The translations under genes were made by a program, and so were the position numbers. Positions 1,445-21,184 of a stretch of 24,000 nt of DNA are shown here, piece after piece. Numbering within the stretch: the stretch's first letter is position 1; every line of letters starts with the position of its first letter. Source of the DNA: Dehalococcoidales bacterium (GTDB lineage Bacteria > Chloroflexota > Dehalococcoidia > Dehalococcoidales > RBG-16-60-22); the NCBI GenBank assembly GCA_034430575.1, contig DAOUDZ010000030.1, positions 11,325-35,324 of the forward strand, written 5' to 3'. Under the pieces are notes generated by a model that saw nothing but the letters and a program-made list of their open reading frames with translations, did no database searches and was not told the origin of the DNA.

Positions 1445-4400
1445 CTAAAAACGCCGTATCTTAAGGACTATCGTAAATATGATGATTAGCGATAAAACGA
1501 TGGTGAAGAGCAGGCCCCCGACCAGATAGATAATCCAGCCCGGTATGCTCAAGGGCTGGCTAGGGACCGGCAGGGTAACACTCTCTGGGGGAGGTTCGGT
1601 CGCAGGTGGGGGTTGTATCTGTGGCGTTGATTGTATTGTCGGCAGGGTTGCCGCGGTCAGGGAAGGGGTTATTTCTGTTATATTTCCCTCGGGGTAGGGT
1701 GGTGCTGGCGGCTCGTTTGCTAACGGAACCGACTCCGTGGTAAAGACGCCGGCGGCGCTCCAGGGACTGTGCGTGCTGGCGCTGATAGCCCTGACCTTCC
1801 AGTAGTATGTCGTATCGTAATCAAGACCGACGTCACAACGCCAGGCATTGGTCGGAAGGGCGTATTCGTCAGTCCTGACGATAACGGGACTGCCGAAACC
1901 GGCATCGGTAGATACCAGCAGTTCGTAGGCCTCCGCCCCGATTACCGCCGTCCACTGGAATAGCGGTTTTCCCGGCACATTAAGGGCGCCGGCGGCAGGG
2001 CTTTCCGGCTTGAGGGCGATAGCCTCGGTGTCAAGGCTGGTGGTAAAAGACAGTTTCTCCGACCATGGACCGGTTACCGGGGCGCTGGCGCGCACGCGCC
2101 AGTAATAAGTGGCGGCCGGGTCGAGTGACGGCAGCCGGGCGGAACTGGCGGACGTGTTGCCCTCGAATCCGTCGGGGACGGATGTTAAATCGGTATCACC
2201 ATCGCATTGCCACTCGTAGCTGGTGGCGCCGTCCAGCGTTTCCCAATCCAGGATGATGTTCCTCACGGTGTGGTCGATGAGGCTGCCGATACCCGCTGCA
2301 CCGTCGTCCGGGGAAACCTGCGTCACCGGCGATGTCAGGGTGTCGAAAAAGGTCATCAGTCTTACATTGGCGGTATCTGTTGACCATAATCGGTTGCCTG
2401 ATTGCCATAGGCCGGACAGGGTGGCGCCGTCATCCAGGCCGCGGGTAACCGTTTCAAAAGTGGGGCCGAGGGTATACCTGGGATTGAGGCAGCGTTCCAT
2501 GCCGCCGTCGCCATCGCTGTTTACGGCGTAAAGGGTCCCATCGTCGATAACGGTCAGCCCGTTGAGTATCGCCTCATCGGGCAGGGTGCCGTCGATGCTT
2601 TCCCAGTCGGTGCTGGAGCCGATAACGAAGCGGTAGACCTCGCCATCGCTATCATCATCGGCGGCATAGACGGTGCGGTTGCTATCGAATTCAGGGTCGA
2701 AGGCCACGGCGATGGAGCCGGTGAGGTGTGACGCGGTATCATTCCCGGGCAGCGATTCGAATGAAAGGCAGTTGTCATTGGACCAGAAGACCCGGCCACT
2801 GGTGTTCCCGACCAGCACGGTGCCGTCCTTTTCGTATCTGGGTGAAATGGCGATGGAGTTTAGAGACTGGTTGCCCGCCGGCGTGCCTTCGGAATAGATA
2901 AAACCGCTATTGGTCGACTTATAAACCATTCCGTGACTGCCGTCGTAGCTGCCCGTGAATAAGGCGGTTTCACTGGCTATAGCCCAAGCATCGACGTAAA
3001 ATTCCGCGCCGCTGGTGGGGTCGTGGGTGAATCTACGTCGGTAGCTCTGGCCATCGTCGGTAGATTGCCATATGGCAGGACTGCCGTTGCTCTCACCGGC
3101 CACAAACAGCGCCCGGCAGTCGTCGCCGTATTCCGGCGGCAGGCCGACCAGGCTCATACTGTCTACAGCGGCCAGATTACCGGCTAAAGTCCTTTCCCAG
3201 GTATTGCCGCCGTCCCGACTGCGCCAGAGGCTATGCCCGTTGCCGAAAGTAAGCATGAATATGGTGTTGTCCTGCCCGTATCCGGGTGAAGGAGCCAGGT
3301 CGACGATGGTATCGATGGTGGTGTCAATCATACTGACCTGGTTCCAGGTTTCGCCGATATCCCGGCTTATAGAGATAGCGCTGCCGTCGCCGCTGGTGGT
3401 GGTATACATCCTGCCGGTAGTCGTGAAATCGGGCGCTATCAGCGCGCCGGTTGTGGACTGGCCGGTAGGCTCCTTGCGACTTCTTGACCAGCCGATACCG
3501 CCATCGGTGCTGACATAGGTCCGGGTGCTATCGGCGGCCCCGGCCAGTAATACAATAAACGGGTGGTCTCCCCGGGCCGCCAGACAGCCGACATCGATGT
3601 TGCTGTACCCGTATGTCAGGCCGATATTCAGGTCGGTAACTATGGGCGTATCCGGCGCATCGGCGCAGTTGATTTTATATACGTCCCCTTCACCCGTCCC
3701 GGTATTGATAGCCGCGAAAAGGGAGCCGCTGCCTGAAGCGGGGTCGGCGTTATAATTATCGGGGAAGACAATTGTCGCCGGGGTAGCCACCCTGACGGAA
3801 GTAGGTACCCCCGAGTTGTCCCTGTCCAGCCTGGCGTATCCTGCGGTATCGCTCCAGCTGGCATCGCCTGCTTTGGCGGCAAAGTAAGTATCGGTTTCGT
3901 CGGTTATTATGGCTACGAGCTGCTGGTCATAGGCGTAGTTGGGCGAGAAAGCCACGGCATAGACGTCATAACTCCCTATATTCGTATCCACCCAGGCCGG
4001 GGTGATGTTTGCCTCGTTCAAGGTATAGACCCCGCCGAACTCGGTGCTGTCCGCGTCTCTGGTGCCGACGGCTATAACATCATCGTTCAGCCAGGTAACA
4101 TCAATAGAGGTTATTTCTAAGTTGTCGGTTCCGGCCCCGCCGGGACTGGCCGGCAGTTGCACAAAGGTCTTGCCGCCGTTAGTGGAGCTGTAAATCGCCG
4201 AAGAAGTGGCATAGTATAACCTGTCGGCGTCATGGGGTGATATGGCGATATCTACTATTGTATCCTGGACACCGCCGATATGTACCCAGCCGGTGCCGCC
4301 GTCAGTAGATTTATACAGAGTATAGGTAAGGCCGTGGCCGCTGGCATAGAGAGTGCCATCGAGGGCCGCGGTCAGGTGCCGGACATCGGAGCCGTCGGCC

Positions 4401-4612
4401 AGGATCCAATCTCCCGCTTCGCTCTCGGTGGGAATATTTACCTTCATCCATTTGATTGCTTCGGGGGATGCTTCAGCCAGTGAGATAAAGCTGAAGGCGG
4501 CGAGTATTGATACAAGGATGAGTTTAACAAAAAGGATGCATAATTCCCGGGATAGCCTGCGAGGTAGCCTGTTATTTGCCATTCGGCGAATATATGCCGG
4601 CATAAAACCCAT
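1445..4612 (-). CDS. Large secreted cell-surface protein (1055 aa): signal peptide, BNR/Asp-box beta-propeller repeats, two FN3-like modules, Pro-rich stalk, C-terminal TM anchor (S-layer/envelope candidate)
   Basis: GAGGT sits 5 nt upstream of the ATG at 4612. Hydrophobic N-terminus ends ...SFISLAEA. Asp-box motifs (S-x-D-x-G-x-T-W): STDGGTGW, STNGGKTF, STDGGIGW, SRDIGETW, SRDGGNTW, STDDGQSY. Two modules end YYWRVRA and YYWKVRA. The tail is Pro-rich (PPAPPYPEG...QPPPATEPPPES), then the TM helix WIIYLVGGLLFTIVLSLIIIFTIVL and KIRRF. Confidence 0.85.
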   Translation of the reverse strand: MGFMPAYIRRMANNRLPRRLSRELCILFVKLILVSILAAFSFISLAEASPEAIKWMKVNIPTESEAGDWILADGSDVRHLTAALDGTLYASGHGLTYTLYKSTDGGTGWVHIGGVQDTIVDIAISPHDADRLYYATSSAIYSSTNGGKTFVQLPASPGGAGTDNLEITSIDVTWLNDDVIAVGTRDADSTEFGGVYTLNEANITPAWVDTNIGSYDVYAVAFSPNYAYDQQLVAIITDETDTYFAAKAGDASWSDTAGYARLDRDNSGVPTSVRVATPATIVFPDNYNADPASGSGSLFAAINTGTGEGDVYKINCADAPDTPIVTDLNIGLTYGYSNIDVGCLAARGDHPFIVLLAGAADSTRTYVSTDGGIGWSRSRKEPTGQSTTGALIAPDFTTTGRMYTTTSGDGSAISISRDIGETWNQVSMIDTTIDTIVDLAPSPGYGQDNTIFMLTFGNGHSLWRSRDGGNTWERTLAGNLAAVDSMSLVGLPPEYGDDCRALFVAGESNGSPAIWQSTDDGQSYRRRFTHDPTSGAEFYVDAWAIASETALFTGSYDGSHGMVYKSTNSGFIYSEGTPAGNQSLNSIAISPRYEKDGTVLVGNTSGRVFWSNDNCLSFESLPGNDTASHLTGSIAVAFDPEFDSNRTVYAADDDSDGEVYRFVIGSSTDWESIDGTLPDEAILNGLTVIDDGTLYAVNSDGDGGMERCLNPRYTLGPTFETVTRGLDDGATLSGLWQSGNRLWSTDTANVRLMTFFDTLTSPVTQVSPDDGAAGIGSLIDHTVRNIILDWETLDGATSYEWQCDGDTDLTSVPDGFEGNTSASSARLPSLDPAATYYWRVRASAPVTGPWSEKLSFTTSLDTEAIALKPESPAAGALNVPGKPLFQWTAVIGAEAYELLVSTDAGFGSPVIVRTDEYALPTNAWRCDVGLDYDTTYYWKVRAISASTHSPWSAAGVFTTESVPLANEPPAPPYPEGNITEITPSLTAATLPTIQSTPQIQPPPATEPPPESVTLPVPSQPLSIPGWIIYLVGGLLFTIVLSLIIIFTIVLKIRRF

Positions 4613-4827: not shown

Positions 4828-6093
4828 ATGGGAACGGACCATTACGAGATTGATGAAGGGACCGGCTATGTCGGTTACCGGGAAGCTTTTAGCCTTATAA
4901 CCTCGGATGTAAAGCCCGTAGGGATTGAAGAGCTATCGCTGGAATTGAGTGTCGACCGTATTGCGGCCGGGGATGTGGTGGCGCAGGTGAGTTATCCTTC
5001 AACGGATGTCTCGCTAAAAGACGGCTTTGCTGTAAAATCCGTTGATGTGGAGGCCGCATCGATGCAAAGTCCCGTATATCTCAAAGTCACCGGCTCTGTA
5101 TTCGCCGGCTCTAAGTTCGGCGGCGAGGTGAAACGGGGCAGCGCTGTCAAGATATGTTCCGGCGCGCCGATACCCCGTGGGGCAGATACCGTGGTCTCCG
5201 CAGAATTCTGCGACGAAATATCGCCGGAAGAGGTGCATGCTAAGGTCAATGCAGAGCCGGGGAGGAATATCCTCCGCGCCGGCGGAGAGGTAAAAGCGGG
5301 GGCGACCATTGTCGGCAGGGGCGGCAGACTTTTACCAGGCTACCTGGGTCTGGCGGCGGCGGCCGGCATCAACCGCGTCAGCGTTTACCGGCGGCCGGTA
5401 GTGGCCGTTGCGGGAATCGGTGATGAGGTAGTAGCGCCCGGGGAAGACTTAAGCCCCGGCCAGCTCTATGCCAGCAATCTGGTCACCATGGAGTCCTGGC
5501 TGGCTTCTTTCGGCATATCCTGCGTCACTTCGGTGGTCAATGATAGTGAGGAAGATATTAAGAATGAGTTGCGTAAAAACCTGCCGGATGTAGATGCTAT
5601 TCTAACCAGCGGCGGCGCCTGGGGCAGCGAGCGCGACCTTGTTGTCGGTTGCCTGAACCAGCTCGGCTGGCAGGAGATATTCCACCACGTGCGTATGGGG
5701 CCGGGTAAGGGTATCGCCTTCGGTCTATGGGAGGGCAAGCCCGTGTTTTGCCTCCCCGGCGGGCCGGCCAGCAACGAGATGGCTTTCCTGCAGCTTGCCC
5801 TGCCCGGAATACTGCGGATGAGCGGTGATACCAGGCATCCACTCCAGACTGTTACCGCCCGGCTTACCGAGGACCTGCAGACCCGCCACCTGGCGTGGAC
5901 GGAGTTCAAGGACGCCACGCTTTCCCGTGACACTGCGGGGAATTACAGGGTTGAGCTTTATAGAGACCGGAGCCGTTTACAGGCTATCGCCAGCGCCAAC
6001 AGCCTCGTCTGCATCCCGGAGGGCACGGAATCGTTGAAGAGCGGTGAGGCCGTCACCGTGCAGATACTGGCCCCCCGCCTTGACGATATATAA
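4828..6093 (+). CDS. moeA: Molybdopterin molybdenumtransferase MoeA
   Basis: The 421-aa product aligns by eye to MoeA along its length: SLKDGFAVKS (cf. S.MDGYAV), SGAPIPRGADTVV, RRPVVAVAGIGDEVV..G, ILTSGGAWGSERD, PGKGIAFG, VFCLPGGPASN. Confidence 0.85.
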   Translation: MGTDHYEIDEGTGYVGYREAFSLITSDVKPVGIEELSLELSVDRIAAGDVVAQVSYPSTDVSLKDGFAVKSVDVEAASMQSPVYLKVTGSVFAGSKFGGEVKRGSAVKICSGAPIPRGADTVVSAEFCDEISPEEVHAKVNAEPGRNILRAGGEVKAGATIVGRGGRLLPGYLGLAAAAGINRVSVYRRPVVAVAGIGDEVVAPGEDLSPGQLYASNLVTMESWLASFGISCVTSVVNDSEEDIKNELRKNLPDVDAILTSGGAWGSERDLVVGCLNQLGWQEIFHHVRMGPGKGIAFGLWEGKPVFCLPGGPASNEMAFLQLALPGILRMSGDTRHPLQTVTARLTEDLQTRHLAWTEFKDATLSRDTAGNYRVELYRDRSRLQAIASANSLVCIPEGTESLKSGEAVTVQILAPRLDDI

Positions 6094-6201: not shown

Positions 6202-9200
6202 TTAGACGGAACGTCTCGTCCTGACGATGAGGACAATTACCGCTATCACCAGGACAGCGCCGATGATGATTATCGCCCAGATGTATGCGGGAGCAATCTG
6301 CTCTGGCGCAGGTGCGGGCGGAATCTCAATGACGTTGGCCGGTGGTGCCGGCGGTATCTCGATTACCGGGGCCGGTACCTGCTCGATTACTACTGGTGCA
6401 GCAGGAGCAGGCGCTTCCTCGGCAATCATGAAGTTGGCAACGGTTGACCAGTCGCCATCAACCGGTTCCAGAGCTTTAACTCTCCAGAAGTAGGTTGTAC
6501 CTCTATCGAGCGCGGCGCTGGACAGGATGCCGGCACTCTCCAGCTGTTCGTCCATTAGGGTAGTTGCGAAGGCAGGGTCAGTAGACAACTGGAACTGGTA
6601 CATGGTCGCACCGGCTGCCGGTGTCCAGGAGAAGGCCGGGGTGGTGCTATCGATGGAACCGCCATTCTCCGGTGAGGCAATAGTCGGGACCGATGCCGCA
6701 GTGGGCTGGACAACGAAGCTTCGTGTCTCCGAGAATGCACTACCTATCGGAAGAGTAGCTGCTACTCTCCAGTAGTAGGTAGTGCCGGGCAGGAAAGTAC
6801 CACCGGCCTGAATCCGTGACACCGGGTCGTTAGCGTTGGGGAGTGCGACGGTGCCAACGGGAATCGGAGGAGCTACTACCAGCTCGGTGAAGCCGTCATC
6901 CAGCGCTATGAACAGGTCGTAGCCGGTAGCCAGGGATATCCGGTTCCAGGTGAAGTTGACGGCAGCAACGGCACCCGTTAACGGGCTGACGATATCGATG
7001 CGGTCGTTATCGGCCGGGCCTATCAGTGCAGGTCCGCCGAGAGCTACGGCATCATCGTAGTAGTAGACATTGGGGGTGCGAGGAGGATCACCCTGGTCAA
7101 CGGCGTATAGCATGATGCTGCCGGGTGCGCCGCCGCTTGTCTTCAGCGCCCAGAAATCGGTGAAGTCGAGGCCAGCCTCAACCCACTGGGTGCCCCAGAA
7201 AAAGGCGGGATGCACGGCTAGCGGAACGGTTGGCGCCAGCGTGCGGTTGAGGTAGGTGCTGGTAGCGCCGGCAGTCGCATCTGAAGATAGTACGTAGAGC
7301 ACGCCGTCGGTGTACGCTATGCCGGTAATTGCCTCAGCGGTGGCAGCACCTTGTGCGGGCGCGTTCATGTTCTTGAACTCACCCAGGAAGTTGGACGGGT
7401 CGAGTGAACAGCGCCAGACGGCTGGTACTGCGGCGCCGGTTTCAGCCGCGAAGACGTAGTCACTTGCGCCCAGACCGGAAGCGGCAACGTACACAGGCGT
7501 AAAGGTGTTTAAGACACCCAGGAGGGCTCTCCAGGTAGTGCCGCCATCGGCGGTATAGACCACACCACCCCAGGTGCCGCCAATGACCAGCTCGTTTTCA
7601 CCCAGGTTTGCCATGGAAAACGGGGTATTGGCGCCCGTCAGTCCGCAGTTCATGGGCAGGCTCCAGGTGAAGCCGGCGTTAACGGACTTGTATACGTTGA
7701 CAGTGGCGGGGTCGCCGATGTAGATAACCTGCGCGCTCTCTACCACGAGGTCAGCTATAGCAGCGATTGGAACGGAAGAGCGCTTATACCATCTACCCGT
7801 GCCGCCATCGGCCGAGTAGTAGATAACCGTGCCGGCCATGTCAGCGGCGTAGATGACGTCCTCGTCAGAATCGAGACCGCGTAGTATCAGGTTAAGTGCG
7901 CCTTTAAGCTCGCACAGCACCCTGGTTACGCCGAAATTGGACATGCGGTAGACGGAAGCTTTGGTTCCGTCTGTCGCTGCCAGGTACCATGTGTTACCTC
8001 CGGCAGTCATGTAGATGTCCTGGATGGTGGTAAGGGAGCTGTCCAGGAGGGAATAGTCGTTCCAGGTGTTACCGTAGTCGAGCGACTTGGAGATAGCCGA
8101 GCCATCGCCAATCTTGCCGCCGTACAGGGTCTCACCGTCGAACTTGAGGAGTACCGTATCGAAAGCGGCCGCGTCATCGATGCCGATTCTCTTCAGCGTG
8201 CGGGCCGGCAGGAAGGTGGGCGCTGTTGCCAGCGGGTCCGCCGAACGGAAAATGTTGTTGGTGAGATAGGCGCCAGCGGCCAGGTTCGTGCCGTCGAAGG
8301 CAACACTGGCGATATCCGTGCCCTGACCAAGAGTGGCCGAGCCGTATATCTTGACGGCGGGAGCGTTATCGTAGCAGCGCCAGATGCCGCCACTCGGGCC
8401 AGCAGTGGTGCCGTCAAGAATTGTTAAACCGGCGAAGGCGATACGCAGCGACTCGTCGCTGCCATCGTAGTCCGGCAACAGGGCTAGGTCCGCCTTGTTG
8501 ACGGTAATACCCGGGGTAGCTGCAGCAGAGCCGTTCTTGATGATTATCGGGTATAGGGTGGCAACTGCGGTATCCCAGGTGCGGGAGTTGAAGCTGAGGA
8601 TATGGTAGTCCACGGCACCAACGGCAGCGGTACCATTATCCACCAGGATAGCGGATGCCATCCAGTCGGACGGGAAGTTGGGAGAGAACTCGAAGGCTGC
8701 GACATCGTCATACGCGACAGCGGTGGCATGGACTACCGGGCCGGTGACGAAGTCAGTGGCAGCGGCAGCGTCGGTGGCATCTCTCCAGGCGCCCACGCCC
8801 GCGCCGTAGTTGTAGTAGAATACCGAGGCTGCACCGGCAGCGTCAGAACCGTAAGCGGCGATGTAGCGGACACCTCCGGTCACCATGGGCGAAATCGTCA
8901 CGCCGTTGAGAGCACCAGCGAGGTTAGTGCCGGTACCGTCCTGGATGAAGCCCATCGAGGTCCAGGAGGTACCGCCGTTGATAGTGATTGCGGCGCTCAG
9001 ACCGGCTGCGGGAGTAGCGTCAGCCACGACAACAACATTCGGGTCGTCGGGGGCTATCGCCACGTAGTCCGCGGTACCGATATCGGCGGGCATCCTCGTG
9101 GAGATATCGCTCCACCACCCACCGGCGTTATTACTTTGCATTACGGCCTGCGAAAAGGGAGCAGGGGCAACGCCGGTCACGGCATACATTGTCATGCCAT

Positions 9201-9390
9201 TGATATCGTAATCAGCGATGTTAGTGCCGGGTGCCAGCACTGCGAAAGGAATAGCAGCTGGTGTGTCAGCTACTTTCATTTCCCAGTTCAGCGGGTCGGC
9301 AGCGGAAGTCGGGACGGCGGCAATAAACAGGCTGGAAAGCAGCACTACTATCAGGCCAACGCCCCAGAATTTAGTTATGAATTTTTTCAT
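6202..9390 (-). CDS. Large secreted cell-surface protein (1062 aa), paralog of 1445-4612: signal peptide, BNR/Asp-box repeats, two FN3-like modules, Pro/Ala-rich repeat stalk, C-terminal TM anchor
   Basis: Signal peptide MKKFITKFWGVGLIVVLLSSLFIAAVPTSAADP. Asp-box-like motifs INGGTSW, SLDYGNTW, SADGGTGRW, SVNAGFTW, TADGGTTW. Modules end YYWRVAA and YFWRVKA. The stalk contains VIEIPPAPPANVIEIPPAPAP. TM helix YIWAIIIIGAVLVIAVIVLIV is followed by RTRRSV. AAGGAG lies 13 nt upstream of the ATG. Confidence 0.85.
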   Translation of the reverse strand: MKKFITKFWGVGLIVVLLSSLFIAAVPTSAADPLNWEMKVADTPAAIPFAVLAPGTNIADYDINGMTMYAVTGVAPAPFSQAVMQSNNAGGWWSDISTRMPADIGTADYVAIAPDDPNVVVVADATPAAGLSAAITINGGTSWTSMGFIQDGTGTNLAGALNGVTISPMVTGGVRYIAAYGSDAAGAASVFYYNYGAGVGAWRDATDAAAATDFVTGPVVHATAVAYDDVAAFEFSPNFPSDWMASAILVDNGTAAVGAVDYHILSFNSRTWDTAVATLYPIIIKNGSAAATPGITVNKADLALLPDYDGSDESLRIAFAGLTILDGTTAGPSGGIWRCYDNAPAVKIYGSATLGQGTDIASVAFDGTNLAAGAYLTNNIFRSADPLATAPTFLPARTLKRIGIDDAAAFDTVLLKFDGETLYGGKIGDGSAISKSLDYGNTWNDYSLLDSSLTTIQDIYMTAGGNTWYLAATDGTKASVYRMSNFGVTRVLCELKGALNLILRGLDSDEDVIYAADMAGTVIYYSADGGTGRWYKRSSVPIAAIADLVVESAQVIYIGDPATVNVYKSVNAGFTWSLPMNCGLTGANTPFSMANLGENELVIGGTWGGVVYTADGGTTWRALLGVLNTFTPVYVAASGLGASDYVFAAETGAAVPAVWRCSLDPSNFLGEFKNMNAPAQGAATAEAITGIAYTDGVLYVLSSDATAGATSTYLNRTLAPTVPLAVHPAFFWGTQWVEAGLDFTDFWALKTSGGAPGSIMLYAVDQGDPPRTPNVYYYDDAVALGGPALIGPADNDRIDIVSPLTGAVAAVNFTWNRISLATGYDLFIALDDGFTELVVAPPIPVGTVALPNANDPVSRIQAGGTFLPGTTYYWRVAATLPIGSAFSETRSFVVQPTAASVPTIASPENGGSIDSTTPAFSWTPAAGATMYQFQLSTDPAFATTLMDEQLESAGILSSAALDRGTTYFWRVKALEPVDGDWSTVANFMIAEEAPAPAAPVVIEQVPAPVIEIPPAPPANVIEIPPAPAPEQIAPAYIWAIIIIGAVLVIAVIVLIVRTRRSV

Positions 9391-19839: not shown

Positions 19840-19856
<17 letters not shown>

Positions 19857-20619
19857 AGTCTTCCTTTTTAATTTCTTTTTTTACACACCATTCATTTATC
19901 CAACACGGTTCACATAGTTTTTTATCATACATGCAGAAGTTGTGACCTACAAACCAGAGATTATCTAGGGTTATAGGAGGTAGATTTTCTCCCATTATTG
20001 CTTCTTTTAATTCCTTTTGAAGTTGATTATATTCTTTATTTATCTCATGGTTTTTATCATAGTAAGAGAAATTTGGTCGTTTGAGTACGTCCCTTTCATT
20101 TTTTTTATCTTTTCCCCATGAAAATAGTTTGTTATACTTCTTAGTACCTACTGCTAGATGTGGATACCATAACAACTCTAATACCCACCGGTCTAAAGGA
20201 ACGTGTAGATACTCTTTCCATAATGGGAAATCCAAGCCGTCTATTTTAAATTCTTTGGAAAAATTAACTAAATGTTTTATATAGAGATTGGCTATTTTCT
20301 GATTAATCTGTGGAATTGTACATAACCAATCTAAGAATGATTTATGTTGTTCTTCAGGGCTTTTCCCCCGATACATGCAAATTCTATCTTTTATATCTTT
20401 GTTAAATATATCGTAGGCTGCTTCACTGTTAGCTTTACTTGCTCCTGCCCTTGCTTTGGTCTCTGCATAGAATATCCTTTTCATCTTATCAATTGAAGAC
20501 GCGTTCTTTACTCGATGGGATATTTGAGAGCGATAGTACGTCATTATGTCCTCATCGTGGTTATATAGTTCTTGTGCTACTTCTCTGAGTTTAGTGACAT
20601 CTTTTATGTAAGTTGTCAT
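19840..20619 (-). CDS. Orphan HhH-GPD/endonuclease III-like protein with C-terminal [4Fe-4S] cluster-loop motif (putative DNA glycosylase), 259 aa
   Basis: A 780-nt ORF in ~33% GC DNA, where random stops are frequent. AAAGGAGGG lies 8 nt upstream of the ATG. C-terminus: [25 protein letters not shown], i.e. C229-X6-C236-X2-C239-X5-C245 (DNA 19885-19935). Compare E. coli Nth [47 protein letters not shown] resembles the Nth HhH LEALPGVGRKTANVVLNTA, with the Lys retained. [11 protein letters not shown] resembles the catalytic-Asp segment AVDTHIFRV. The last 17 nt overlap the carB start. Confidence 0.6.
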
Positions 20620-20683
20620 TTTGCTACCCTCCTTTATTCATCCATCTTCTTTTCCTCACCCCCTTTGTTTAAATCCCTCTCGG

Positions 20684-20704
20684 TCTCCCTTTATTAAAGG
20701 GAGA
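20684..20704. repeat. Palindrome related to the 38-bp repeat core, spanning the DUF559 stop codon
   Basis: TCTCCCTTTA-t-TAAAGGGAGA is a 10-bp-arm palindrome. It has the same TC(C/T)CCCTTT...AAAGGG(G/A)GA design as the hairpin in the 38-bp repeats. Confidence 0.6.
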
Positions 20705-21122
20705 AGCTATTATGTATCCCTCTTCGTTTCCAAGTTTCCCCCTTTGAAAAAGGGGGACTAAGGGGGATTTTTCCAGAGATTTCTCCTTCGATTTTCTCCA
20801 AAACCCCCTTCATATTCTTTAACACATCGCTATTGGTGAACCTCAATACTCTCAAACCAAGGCTGCTCAAGTAATCATCCCTTATCCTGTCATATTCCAT
20901 CTTCTCACCAACGAGGTGGTGACTGCCGTCGATTTCAATAGCCAGCTTTGCCTTCGGGCAATAAAAATCCACGATGTAATCCCCAATGGGTTTCTGTCGA
21001 TAGAAAATCAATCCTTTAACTTGTTTCATCCTTATCTTCCACCAGAGACGCTTTTCGGCATCTGTCATATTATCTCTGAGTTGCTGCGCAAATTGTTTCA
21101 GGTTTTCATTGTAAGGTAGCAT
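20694..21122 (-). CDS. DUF559 endonuclease-domain protein (Vsr-like PD-(D/E)xK fold), 142 aa
   Basis: QLRDNMTDAEKRLWWKIRMKQVKGLIFYRQKPIGDYIVDFYCPKAKLAIEIDGSHH...YDRIRDDYLSSLGLRVLRFTNSDV matches the DUF559 consensus (T.aE..LW..LR......FRRQ...G.YIvDF.c....l.iE.DG..H....D..R...L...G..VlRf.n.dv). The last ~25 aa (IPLSPPFSKGE...) are encoded by the flanking repeat. Confidence 0.85.
   Translation of the reverse strand: MLPYNENLKQFAQQLRDNMTDAEKRLWWKIRMKQVKGLIFYRQKPIGDYIVDFYCPKAKLAIEIDGSHHLVGEKMEYDRIRDDYLSSLGLRVLRFTNSDVLKNMKGVLEKIEGEISGKIPLSPPFSKGETWKRRGIHNSFSL
20733..20770. repeat. 38-bp direct repeat, copy 1 (hairpin-containing), inside the 3' end of the DUF559 ORF
   Basis: AGTTTCCCCCTTTGAAAAAGGGGGACTAAGGGGGATTT is identical to 21147-21184. 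It contains the hairpin CCCCCTTT-gaa-AAAGGGGG. Confidence 0.9.
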
Positions 21123-21146: not shown

Positions 21147-21184
21147 AGTTTCCCCCTTTGAAAAAGGGGGACTAAGGGGGATTT
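21147..21184. repeat. 38-bp direct repeat, copy 2, between the DUF559 start and the carA stop
   Basis: A perfect 38/38 match to 20733-20770, 414 bp away. Its last 2 nt overlap the carA stop codon (21183-21185). Confidence 0.9.

Follow-up and report, generated by a model that had tools for sequence, protein, structure and literature searches.

A predicted endonuclease III-like glycosylase family with a four-cysteine loop, carried on a foreign cassette in the pyrimidine operon of a Dehalococcoidales bacterium

The stretch of DNA that was analysed (the window) comprises 24,000 nucleotides of a Dehalococcoidales bacterium (NCBI GenBank assembly GCA_034430575.1, contig DAOUDZ010000030.1, positions 11,325 to 35,324 of the forward strand). 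It contains a pyrimidine operon whose genes are ordered pyrR, pyrB/I, pyrC, carA, DUF559, ORF259, carB and pyrK, and the present work concerns ORF259, an open reading frame (ORF) located between carA and carB. This gene is foreign to the host genome, where it replaced a gene encoding a TIR-domain protein that is a defence candidate, and sequence comparisons support its product being a divergent helix-hairpin-helix (HhH) glycosylase of the endonuclease III (Nth) type, one that keeps the Lys/Asp pair and has a four-cysteine (Cys4) cluster loop. The coordinates and strand of the ORF, its length of 259 amino acids, the location of the Cys4 motif (19885-19935), the HhH-like stretch (residues 101-113) and the PLDRWV segment holding D143, 35 residues past K108, were all found as described in the initial annotation, which had been made from the letters of the sequence without database searches. 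The features of the gene are the following (positions are those of the window):

19840..20619, minus strand: ORF259 (P0001), predicted divergent HhH / [4Fe-4S]-loop glycosylase-like protein, 259 amino acids
20281..20319, minus strand: helix-hairpin-helix motif, residues 101-113, aligned to Nth LPGVGRKTANVVL
20296-20298, minus strand: putative catalytic Lys108 codon, inside the HhH motif, opposite Nth K120
20191..20208, minus strand: LHVPLD segment, residues 138-143, aligned to Nth IAVD138
20191-20193, minus strand: putative catalytic Asp143 codon
19945..19965, minus strand: D219-x2-W222-x2-G225, helix preceding the Cys loop, invariant in the family
19885..19935, minus strand: C229-X6-C236-X2-C239-X5-C245, putative [4Fe-4S] cluster loop, read directly from the sequence

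The same intact ORF259 sequence recurs on 9 contigs, which come from several samples. Its product contains six Cys in total, and shuffling the protein 200,000 times reproduced the exact Cys4 spacing in 4 cases.

Homologues were searched with phmmer, exhaustively, in a set of 1.84 billion cluster representatives, which yielded 39 proteins at E <= 1e-3 (29 at E <= 1e-10 and 10 at E <= 1e-30), mostly full length and sharing 30-52% identity with ORF259. All 39 homologue clusters are metagenomic and without annotation, and 21 further loci with relatives were recovered by a pattern scan of JGI metagenomes. The protein, taken for an orphan in the initial annotation, is instead an unannotated one: homologues exist, and the residues named there are conserved in them. 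A word-indexed homology search returned ORF259 itself only, and using the family alignment as a query added just P0032. ORF259 alone gave nothing beyond noise against Pfam, NCBIfam, PADLOC, PHROGs and the PDB sequences, and no model of PADLOC-DB v2 matched it. PF00730 was not matched by ORF259 at E <= 10, nor by 25 members at E <= 1; PF00633 and PF10576 had no Pfam match to ORF259 or to the 25 members, and the HHH motif model, that model only, was weakly matched by one member (E 0.053). A search of species-representative genomes with ORF259 as sole query, which reaches close relatives only, found no relative. The family is real, rare and unannotated. Start positions are consistent among the homologues (M-x-Y-I/V-x-D), and the called start of ORF259 is supported because these starts agree.

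Many members (P0006, P0007, P0013, P0015, P0016) bear a C-terminal extension that ORF259 lacks. This extension is also encoded at loci L009, L014, L016, L020, L022 and L023 and makes up the last 50-110 residues. It is rich in Lys, Arg and Glu, then carries one or two repeats like NPxxxxSDFxxFxxxxxGxxWL, and may be an extra DNA-binding or partner-binding module. N-terminally truncated copies are found downstream of an M20 peptidase gene at L025:6515-7213, L026:4934-5632 and L027:1504-1746; they start at about residue 88 and were therefore considered as decayed or misassembled copies.

Conservation was counted on a 40-sequence family alignment. K108, D143, P141 and Q201 are each conserved in 39/40 members, Q107 in 37/40 and R57 in 36/40, and D219, W222 and G225 are each invariant (40/40). 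C229 is kept in 37/40, C236 in 38/40, C239 in 39/40 and C245 in 39/40, and all four occur together in 33/40; the six residues whose conservation the initial annotation had proposed to check are thus each retained in 37-39 of the 40 sequences. The family consensus around the Lys is LCxIPGxxQKTANLFLK, much nearer to Nth LPGVGRKTANVVLN than the ORF259 copy is, and the consensus at the Asp is PYLHVPLD. The family thus has an HhH motif followed by a Gly/Pro-rich loop and a near-invariant Asp, with a spacing of 35 residues against about 18.

Homology to Nth was evaluated by profile-profile alignment (hhalign). The Nth reference alignment was built from proteins annotated as endonuclease III, which are 85-93% identical to one another; the homology search made for this reference yielded only proteins 86-99% identical to E. 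coli Nth, and a scan of viral contigs added 2 sequences. The 25-member family profile aligned to Nth with a probability of 31% (P 5e-4, score 32.7), and the 40-member profile with a probability of 86% (P 5e-6, score 45.0, 145 aligned columns), a value that is conservative because the shallow Nth reference profile hinders detection. The 40-member alignment is colinear (residues 47-239 with Nth 49-207) and places K108 opposite K120, D143 opposite D138, the four Cys opposite the four Cys of Nth, and W222 and G225 opposite the W and G of Nth HHWLILHG. As controls, 200 column-shuffled Nth alignments gave a mean score of 13.8 (standard deviation 2.6, maximum 28.5) with the 25-member profile, and 60 gave a maximum of 22.0 with the 40-member profile, versus the observed 45.0. 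When the alignment was halved, the HhH/Asp part scored 34.2 (shuffle maximum 21.5) and the Cys loop part 20.9 (shuffle maximum 15.5); each half is significant by itself, so the match cannot be put down to the Cys motif only. The Lys-Asp distance of 35 rather than 18 residues is explained by an insertion of about 17 residues relative to Nth, between the helix after the HhH motif and Asp143.

Searches of the PDB sequences point in the same direction. The 25-member profile gave weak, colinear endonuclease III matches at the HhH motif and Cys loop (E 0.23), and with the 40-member profile 10 of the 14 matches at E <= 10 were HhH-GPD glycosylases (best E 0.062), among them the Nth of E. coli, Geobacillus and Deinococcus, MUTYH and an AlkA-like enzyme. 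Sub-threshold NCBIfam matches among the 40 members were to TIGR02757 (8), mutY (4), the Deinococcus DR2438 glycosylase (4), ogg (1) and nth (1). With its conserved residues, a significant hhalign match with Lys, Asp and Cys4 in register, and weak matches dominated by HhH-GPD enzymes, the proposal of a very divergent HhH-GPD member made in the initial annotation is supported by the profile-profile comparison that had been suggested for it. Its description of the N-terminal 95 or so residues as resembling nothing recognisable applies to the first 45 or so (two helices) and fails from about residue 45, where the Nth alignment begins. A model obtained using AlphaFold2 with the family alignment is confident and all-alpha (predicted local distance difference test 88.9, predicted template modelling score 0.85), with a helix order compatible with Nth and a low-confidence beta-hairpin insertion at about residues 168-190.

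These comparisons support ORF259 as a divergent Nth-like HhH glycosylase and place the family as a new divergent branch of a known superfamily. The closest characterised relatives, the FeS enzymes Nth, MutY, Mig and the EndoIII-1 and EndoIII-3 of D. radiodurans, have the same order of elements (helical region, HhH motif with Lys, Asp, W..G helix, C-terminal Cys4), and the Lys/Asp pair of the bifunctional Nth is retained in the ORF259 family. ORF259 differs from the Nth-type enzymes in having no Pfam match, about 45 unaligned N-terminal residues, the HhH-to-Asp insertion of about 17 residues and a further insertion of about 45 residues, containing the low-confidence beta-hairpin, before the last two helices; it is also foreign, mobile and found among defence genes, outside the core repair-gene context. 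The commonest sub-threshold match is to the uncharacterised families TIGR02757 (8 of 40 members, best E 4.9e-4) and Pfam DUF2400 (3 of 25), which appear to be the same family: P0034 matches positions 34-180 of the 225 of DUF2400 with its residues 10-155 (E 3.2e-4). All these matches are under the curated cut-offs and ORF259 itself has none; as the function of TIGR02757 is uncharacterised, the link adds no mechanism.

The G + C content (GC) of ORF259 is 0.34, with 0.31 at third codon positions (GC3), while carA and carB have a GC of 0.60 and a GC3 of 0.79-0.80, and the DUF559 gene a GC of 0.42. The assignment of the host to Dehalococcoidia follows from carA, which shares 84% identity with its counterpart in the metagenome-assembled genome of an uncultured Dehalococcoidaceae member. 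Comparison with related genomes (individual loci are designated by L numbers) delimited the following features around ORF259:

19851..20639, minus strand: foreign segment with ORF259, 789 bp, GC 0.34, delimited by composition and comparison with relatives
20628-20633, minus strand: Shine-Dalgarno sequence AGGAGG belonging to the segment
20634..20645, minus strand: three-codon relic ORF (ATG GAT GAA TAA), whose ATG GAT matches the first two codons of the TIR gene at this place in L028
19840..19870, minus strand: carB junction; the carB ribosome-binding site AAGGAAG and the ATG (19854-19856) come from the foreign segment
20646..20732, minus strand: conserved junction module, composed of a second hairpin, TCTCCCTTTAATAAAGGGAGA, then GAGAGGGATTT, then the GGGGGTGAGG..AGAAG leader, common to L035 and L040
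20694..21122, minus strand: DUF559 gene (Vsr-like nuclease fold), 142 amino acids, forming the neighbouring cassette (PF04480, E 2.2e-35)
20733..20770: downstream copy of a 38-nt perfect direct repeat with hairpin core CCCCCTTTTTCAAAGGGGG, encoding the DUF559 C-terminal tail
21147..21184: upstream copy of the 38-nt direct repeat, beginning in the carA stop codon

At the upstream junction, two hairpins are followed by GGGGGTGAGG..AGAAG ATG GAT in the window, L035, L040 and L028, and in L028 ATGGATTTATTA comes after a shared GGGGGTGAGG..AGAAAAG leader. Upstream homology with the relatives ends after ATGGAT, and on the carB side it restarts at AAACCATCTAAAGTC. Downstream of the relic ORF, the window has a fresh AGGAGG, then the ATG of ORF259. 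ORF259 ends inside carB, whose 5' sequence provides its final four codons and its stop (a 17-nt overlap), and the carB start reads TTG ACC ACC AAA CCA in relatives versus ATG CCC AAA CCA in the window. The boundaries thus mapped against relatives show that the 789-bp segment replaced the TIR gene. ORF259 is probably transcribed together with the pyrimidine operon; a promoter and terminator scan of the island gave background level only. A family gene occupies a comparable position at L010, where pyrC is 63% and the family gene 35% identical to their window counterparts, and where the stop of the family gene overlaps the carB ATG; only 21 carB codons follow, then unrelated sequence.

The adjoining DUF559 gene gave weak matches to the DpdF and methyl-directed restriction endonuclease models in PADLOC, and its orthologues (49-70% identity) lie after carA in L030 and L035. 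A dedicated DUF559-ORF259 pair was considered and rejected, since DUF559 pairs with a TIR protein in the relatives. No perfect 38-nt repeat would be expected by chance (0 expected); its hairpin is also found at the locus in L035 (5532-5550) and L040 (4877-4895), and L040 has a single copy in the same place, without DUF559. These observations fit two histories: either DUF559 was inserted and the hairpin duplicated in the process, or the gene was lost when the repeats recombined. As single-stranded DNA the junction module folds into two 9-bp hairpins within a 7-bp outer stem (z -2.3). The module (window 20646-20775, minus strand; L035:5490-5650; L040:4850-4995) precedes the cassette genes, with leader GGGGTGAGGTAGAAAAG-ATG; it resembles a cassette boundary, and no integrase lies nearby.

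The carA-carB gap was surveyed in 80 related genomes (L028-L107). Its size is 2-70 nt in many genomes and up to 2.2 kb (for example L028:2414-4197, L030:5077-6932, L040:4845-5593 and L045:1621-3630), and in Dehalococcoidia the gaps carry varied cargo, mostly of low GC. The closest relative (L028) has a TIR-domain protein (PF10137; PADLOC candidate PDC-S35) and a GIY-YIG gene; L030 and L035 have DUF559, then a TIR-type protein of the same family as that of L028; the gap of L040 carries a HEPN AbiU2 and that of L045 a Schlafen AlbA_2. The TIR/PDC-S35, GIY-YIG, AbiU2 and AlbA_2 assignments were confirmed with family searches; small gene pairs in L034, L053, L055, L059 and L069, assigned by eye, resemble the HicAB and VapBC toxin-antitoxin systems. 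The carA-carB gap of Dehalococcoidia is thus a hotspot for variable cassettes. That the unannotated ORFs in the gaps of L028, L030, L035, L039 and L040 might be distant members of the ORF259 family was rejected, as hmmsearch with the family profile was negative; an exact look-up of carA for strains with another cassette returned no record.

In L028, some 60 bp from the 5' end of carB were duplicated where the GIY-YIG gene (3830-4207) went in (3717-3776 versus 4190 onward). Together with the carB fragment of L010, this duplication makes the carB start look like a recurrent insertion point. Thirteen Dehalococcoidia genomes (L048, L051, L054, L056-L058, L060, L062-L064, L067, L071 and L092) have in the gap a conserved 138-aa ORF (MSSFSMVLLEGGVDVEV...) without Pfam match, at about 5230-5660 in each; given a GC near the host value, it may encode a small protein that is resident in the pyr operon. 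Elsewhere in the window, two proteins of about 1,060 amino acids (1445-4612 and 6202-9390, minus strand) flank a moeA gene; the product of 1445-4612 has Sortilin/BNR, fibronectin type III and Ig-like domains, and that of 6202-9390 a sub-threshold Ig-like match only. Both are probably surface proteins, unrelated to ORF259.

Several homologues lie beside genes of restriction-modification (RM) systems, nucleases or recombinases. At L015 a C5-methyltransferase, a BpuJI-like restriction endonuclease and a C5-methyltransferase-Vsr fusion with a DUF559-like tail are encoded, the homologue lying 17 nt downstream; L012 has a tyrosine integrase, a BglI/SfiI-like restriction endonuclease and an N4/N6 methyltransferase that adjoins the homologue. 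A PLD/NgoFVII-like nuclease gene, matching the DrmC and ZacB models of PADLOC, is directly downstream of the homologue at L013. At L014, NurA, HerA, DruA and an HSDR_N-like nuclease-fold gene precede the homologue, and an HSDR_N-like gene is likewise directly upstream at L016. L009 has a large serine recombinase and an integrase. Other neighbours are proA (L017), the M20 peptidase (L025-L027), DUF1214 (L023) or unknown genes. At most loci the GC of the homologue is lower than that of its surroundings.

We consider it probable that ORF259 is a mobile, defence-type, Nth-like glycosylase with an iron-sulfur (FeS) loop, directed against modified or foreign bases of invading DNA rather than devoted to the repair of oxidative damage. 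A mobile defence role is the most economical because of the foreign composition of the gene, the replacement of a TIR gene, the filling of the slot with abortive-infection-type and probable toxin-antitoxin genes, and the RM, nuclease and recombinase neighbourhoods of the homologues. This genomic context, which the initial annotation had not seen, shifts the likely role from repair to a mobile, defence-linked one. In the mechanism that we propose, the DNA backbone would be held by the HhH motif and the Cys4-ligated cluster loop, and the base would be flipped into a pocket lined by the invariant D219/W222/G225 helix. Lys108, activated by Asp143, would then attack C1' so that the base is excised, and the strand would probably be nicked by beta-elimination, as by the bifunctional Nth.

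Two described systems provide precedents. The Dag proteins are HhH-superfamily glycosylases that escape sequence annotation, and their genes are located in mobile cassettes that are AT-rich and rich in defence genes. By means of a Lys, an Asp and a stacking Trp they degrade the DNA of phages that contains 7-deazaguanines, and they confer protection from phages whose guanines are modified (Getz et al., bioRxiv 10.1101/2025.10.29.685425). By description, ORF259 is alike in being a single gene, unannotatable by sequence, in an exchanged, AT-rich and defence-rich region: its GC3 (0.31 versus 0.80), the hotspot cargo and the RM, DruA, HerA, NurA and recombinase neighbours fit such a location. K118, D184 and W188 of Dag1 resemble K108, D143 or D219, and W222 of ORF259. 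The ORF259 family has a Cys4 loop, whereas an iron-sulfur cluster is not mentioned in the Dag paper (bioRxiv 10.1101/2025.10.29.685425), and Dag is present in thousands of genomes, mostly of Pseudomonadota, whereas the ORF259 family occurs in metagenomes only, with the ORF259 copy in Dehalococcoidia. In END nucleases, a PLD nuclease is fused to an inactive EndoIII/OGG-like sensor of modifications, and this sensor combines with other nucleases (PMC12191111). END nucleases thus offer a case of an EndoIII-like module in defence, and nuclease genes adjoin the ORF259 family at several loci; unlike the END sensor, the module of the ORF259 family is a separate protein, with Lys and Asp and with the Cys4 loop.

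A number of observations weigh against ORF259 being a defence glycosylase. No Pfam or NCBIfam model is reached at threshold by any family member. Foldseek comparisons of two confident models with the PDB, and of one with BFVD, gave no significant match, and the second model had zero glycosylase matches; the global fold is therefore putative. One Cys is missing in 7/40 members, the missing Cys differing by member, and member P0018 lacks both K108 and D143. The hairpin Gly of the HhH motif is gone in the ORF259 copy, as the initial annotation had remarked of a Gly-rich hairpin, but this loss does not extend to the family, whose consensus retains IPG before QKTAN. No family member was found among viral contigs, phage records and plasmids. 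About half of the informative homologue loci have housekeeping or unknown neighbours (L010, L017, L023 and L025), and the argument for defence proceeds by guilt by association.

Three other explanations are possible, each less well supported than a mobile defence glycosylase. The protein could be an accessory of the Mig.MthI/Vsr type for the repair of methylation damage: a mismatch glycosylase that travels with RM systems and clears the T or U left opposite G when 5-methylcytosine or N4-methylcytosine is deaminated. Mig is encoded beside a C5-methyltransferase, and the homologues at L015 (C5) and L012 (N4/N6) are directly beside a methyltransferase gene; the Mig of Methanothermobacter (PDB 1kea) is an HhH-GPD FeS enzyme that stands among the relatives of Nth, and the DUF559 neighbour in the window has a Vsr-like fold. 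This explanation nevertheless appears unlikely: a methyltransferase is found at only 2 of about 13 informative homologue loci and there is no DNA methyltransferase among the genes of the 24-kb window, the L015 methyltransferase is already fused to Vsr, so that another enzyme for T:G repair would be superfluous, and the Nth-type Lys is present in 39/40 members. To our knowledge, the monofunctional mismatch glycosylases of the HhH-GPD superfamily are without this Lys.

The family could also supply the base-sensing partner of an adjacent nuclease, as a split version of the modification-dependent END-type nucleases, with an EndoIII-like domain to recognise the hypermodified bases and a nuclease of its own to cut the DNA. 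Small nuclease-fold genes in the same orientation adjoin it as DUF559 in the window, as a Vsr/DUF559-like C-terminus at L015, as HSDR_N-like genes at L014 and L016 and as PLD at L013, and the fusion of an EndoIII/OGG-like sensor to a PLD nuclease is the precedent (PMC12191111). We regard such a role as improbable, given that END sensors have lost their catalytic residues (PMC12191111), which 39/40 members of the ORF259 family retain as Lys and Asp, that the DUF559 partner is nonspecific (it is paired with a TIR protein in L030 and L035) and is set off as a distinct cassette by the repeats that flank it, and that several homologues have no adjacent nuclease. Also improbable, and in our view doubtful, is an acquired housekeeping-type endonuclease III paralogue acting on oxidised pyrimidines, or a selfish passenger, whose position in the hotspot would be incidental. 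Its case is that the characterised relatives detectable by sequence are repair enzymes only, that some homologues have metabolic neighbours (proA at L017, the M20 peptidase at L025, pyrC and the carB fragment at L010), and that the N-terminal truncation of the L025, L026 and L027 copies suggests decay. It is opposed by the rarity and patchiness of the family (39 clusters per 1.84 billion representatives), by the empty species-representative search (ORF259 alone, close relatives only), by the strongly foreign composition, by the loss of a defence candidate to this gene, in a slot that elsewhere holds abortive-infection-type and probable toxin-antitoxin genes, and by a divergence from Nth far beyond that of known repair paralogues.

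The defence glycosylase that we favour could also be extended to a new class of FeS HhH "restriction glycosylase" acting alone, on a promoterless cassette at a carB 5' exchange site, with the hairpin repeats and carB duplications marking an integron-like, integrase-independent system that borrows pyr-operon transcription; this extension is speculative and we think it unlikely to hold in full. The superfamily and its Cys loop are textbook knowledge, and HhH glycosylases in defence were described in 2025. New here are a distinct family that lacks annotation and can only just be detected, a putative FeS loop in such a context, the distinctive pattern of insertions relative to Nth, and an exchangeable cassette in an essential operon of Dehalococcoidia.

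The type represented by endonuclease III and MutY, with a predicted FeS loop, is extended to a lineage undetected by annotation models and tied to RM and defence neighbourhoods. If active in defence, the ORF259 family would be an FeS-containing example of anti-phage glycosylases of uncultured anaerobes, with a base specificity probably different from that of Dag. The locus amounts to a natural experiment: one slot of an essential operon holds, depending on the relative, a TIR, AbiU2 HEPN or Schlafen-like gene, a probable toxin-antitoxin pair or the glycosylase gene. This points to functional interchangeability, and the slot offers a route to more defence genes in Dehalococcoidia, for which genetic tools are scarce.

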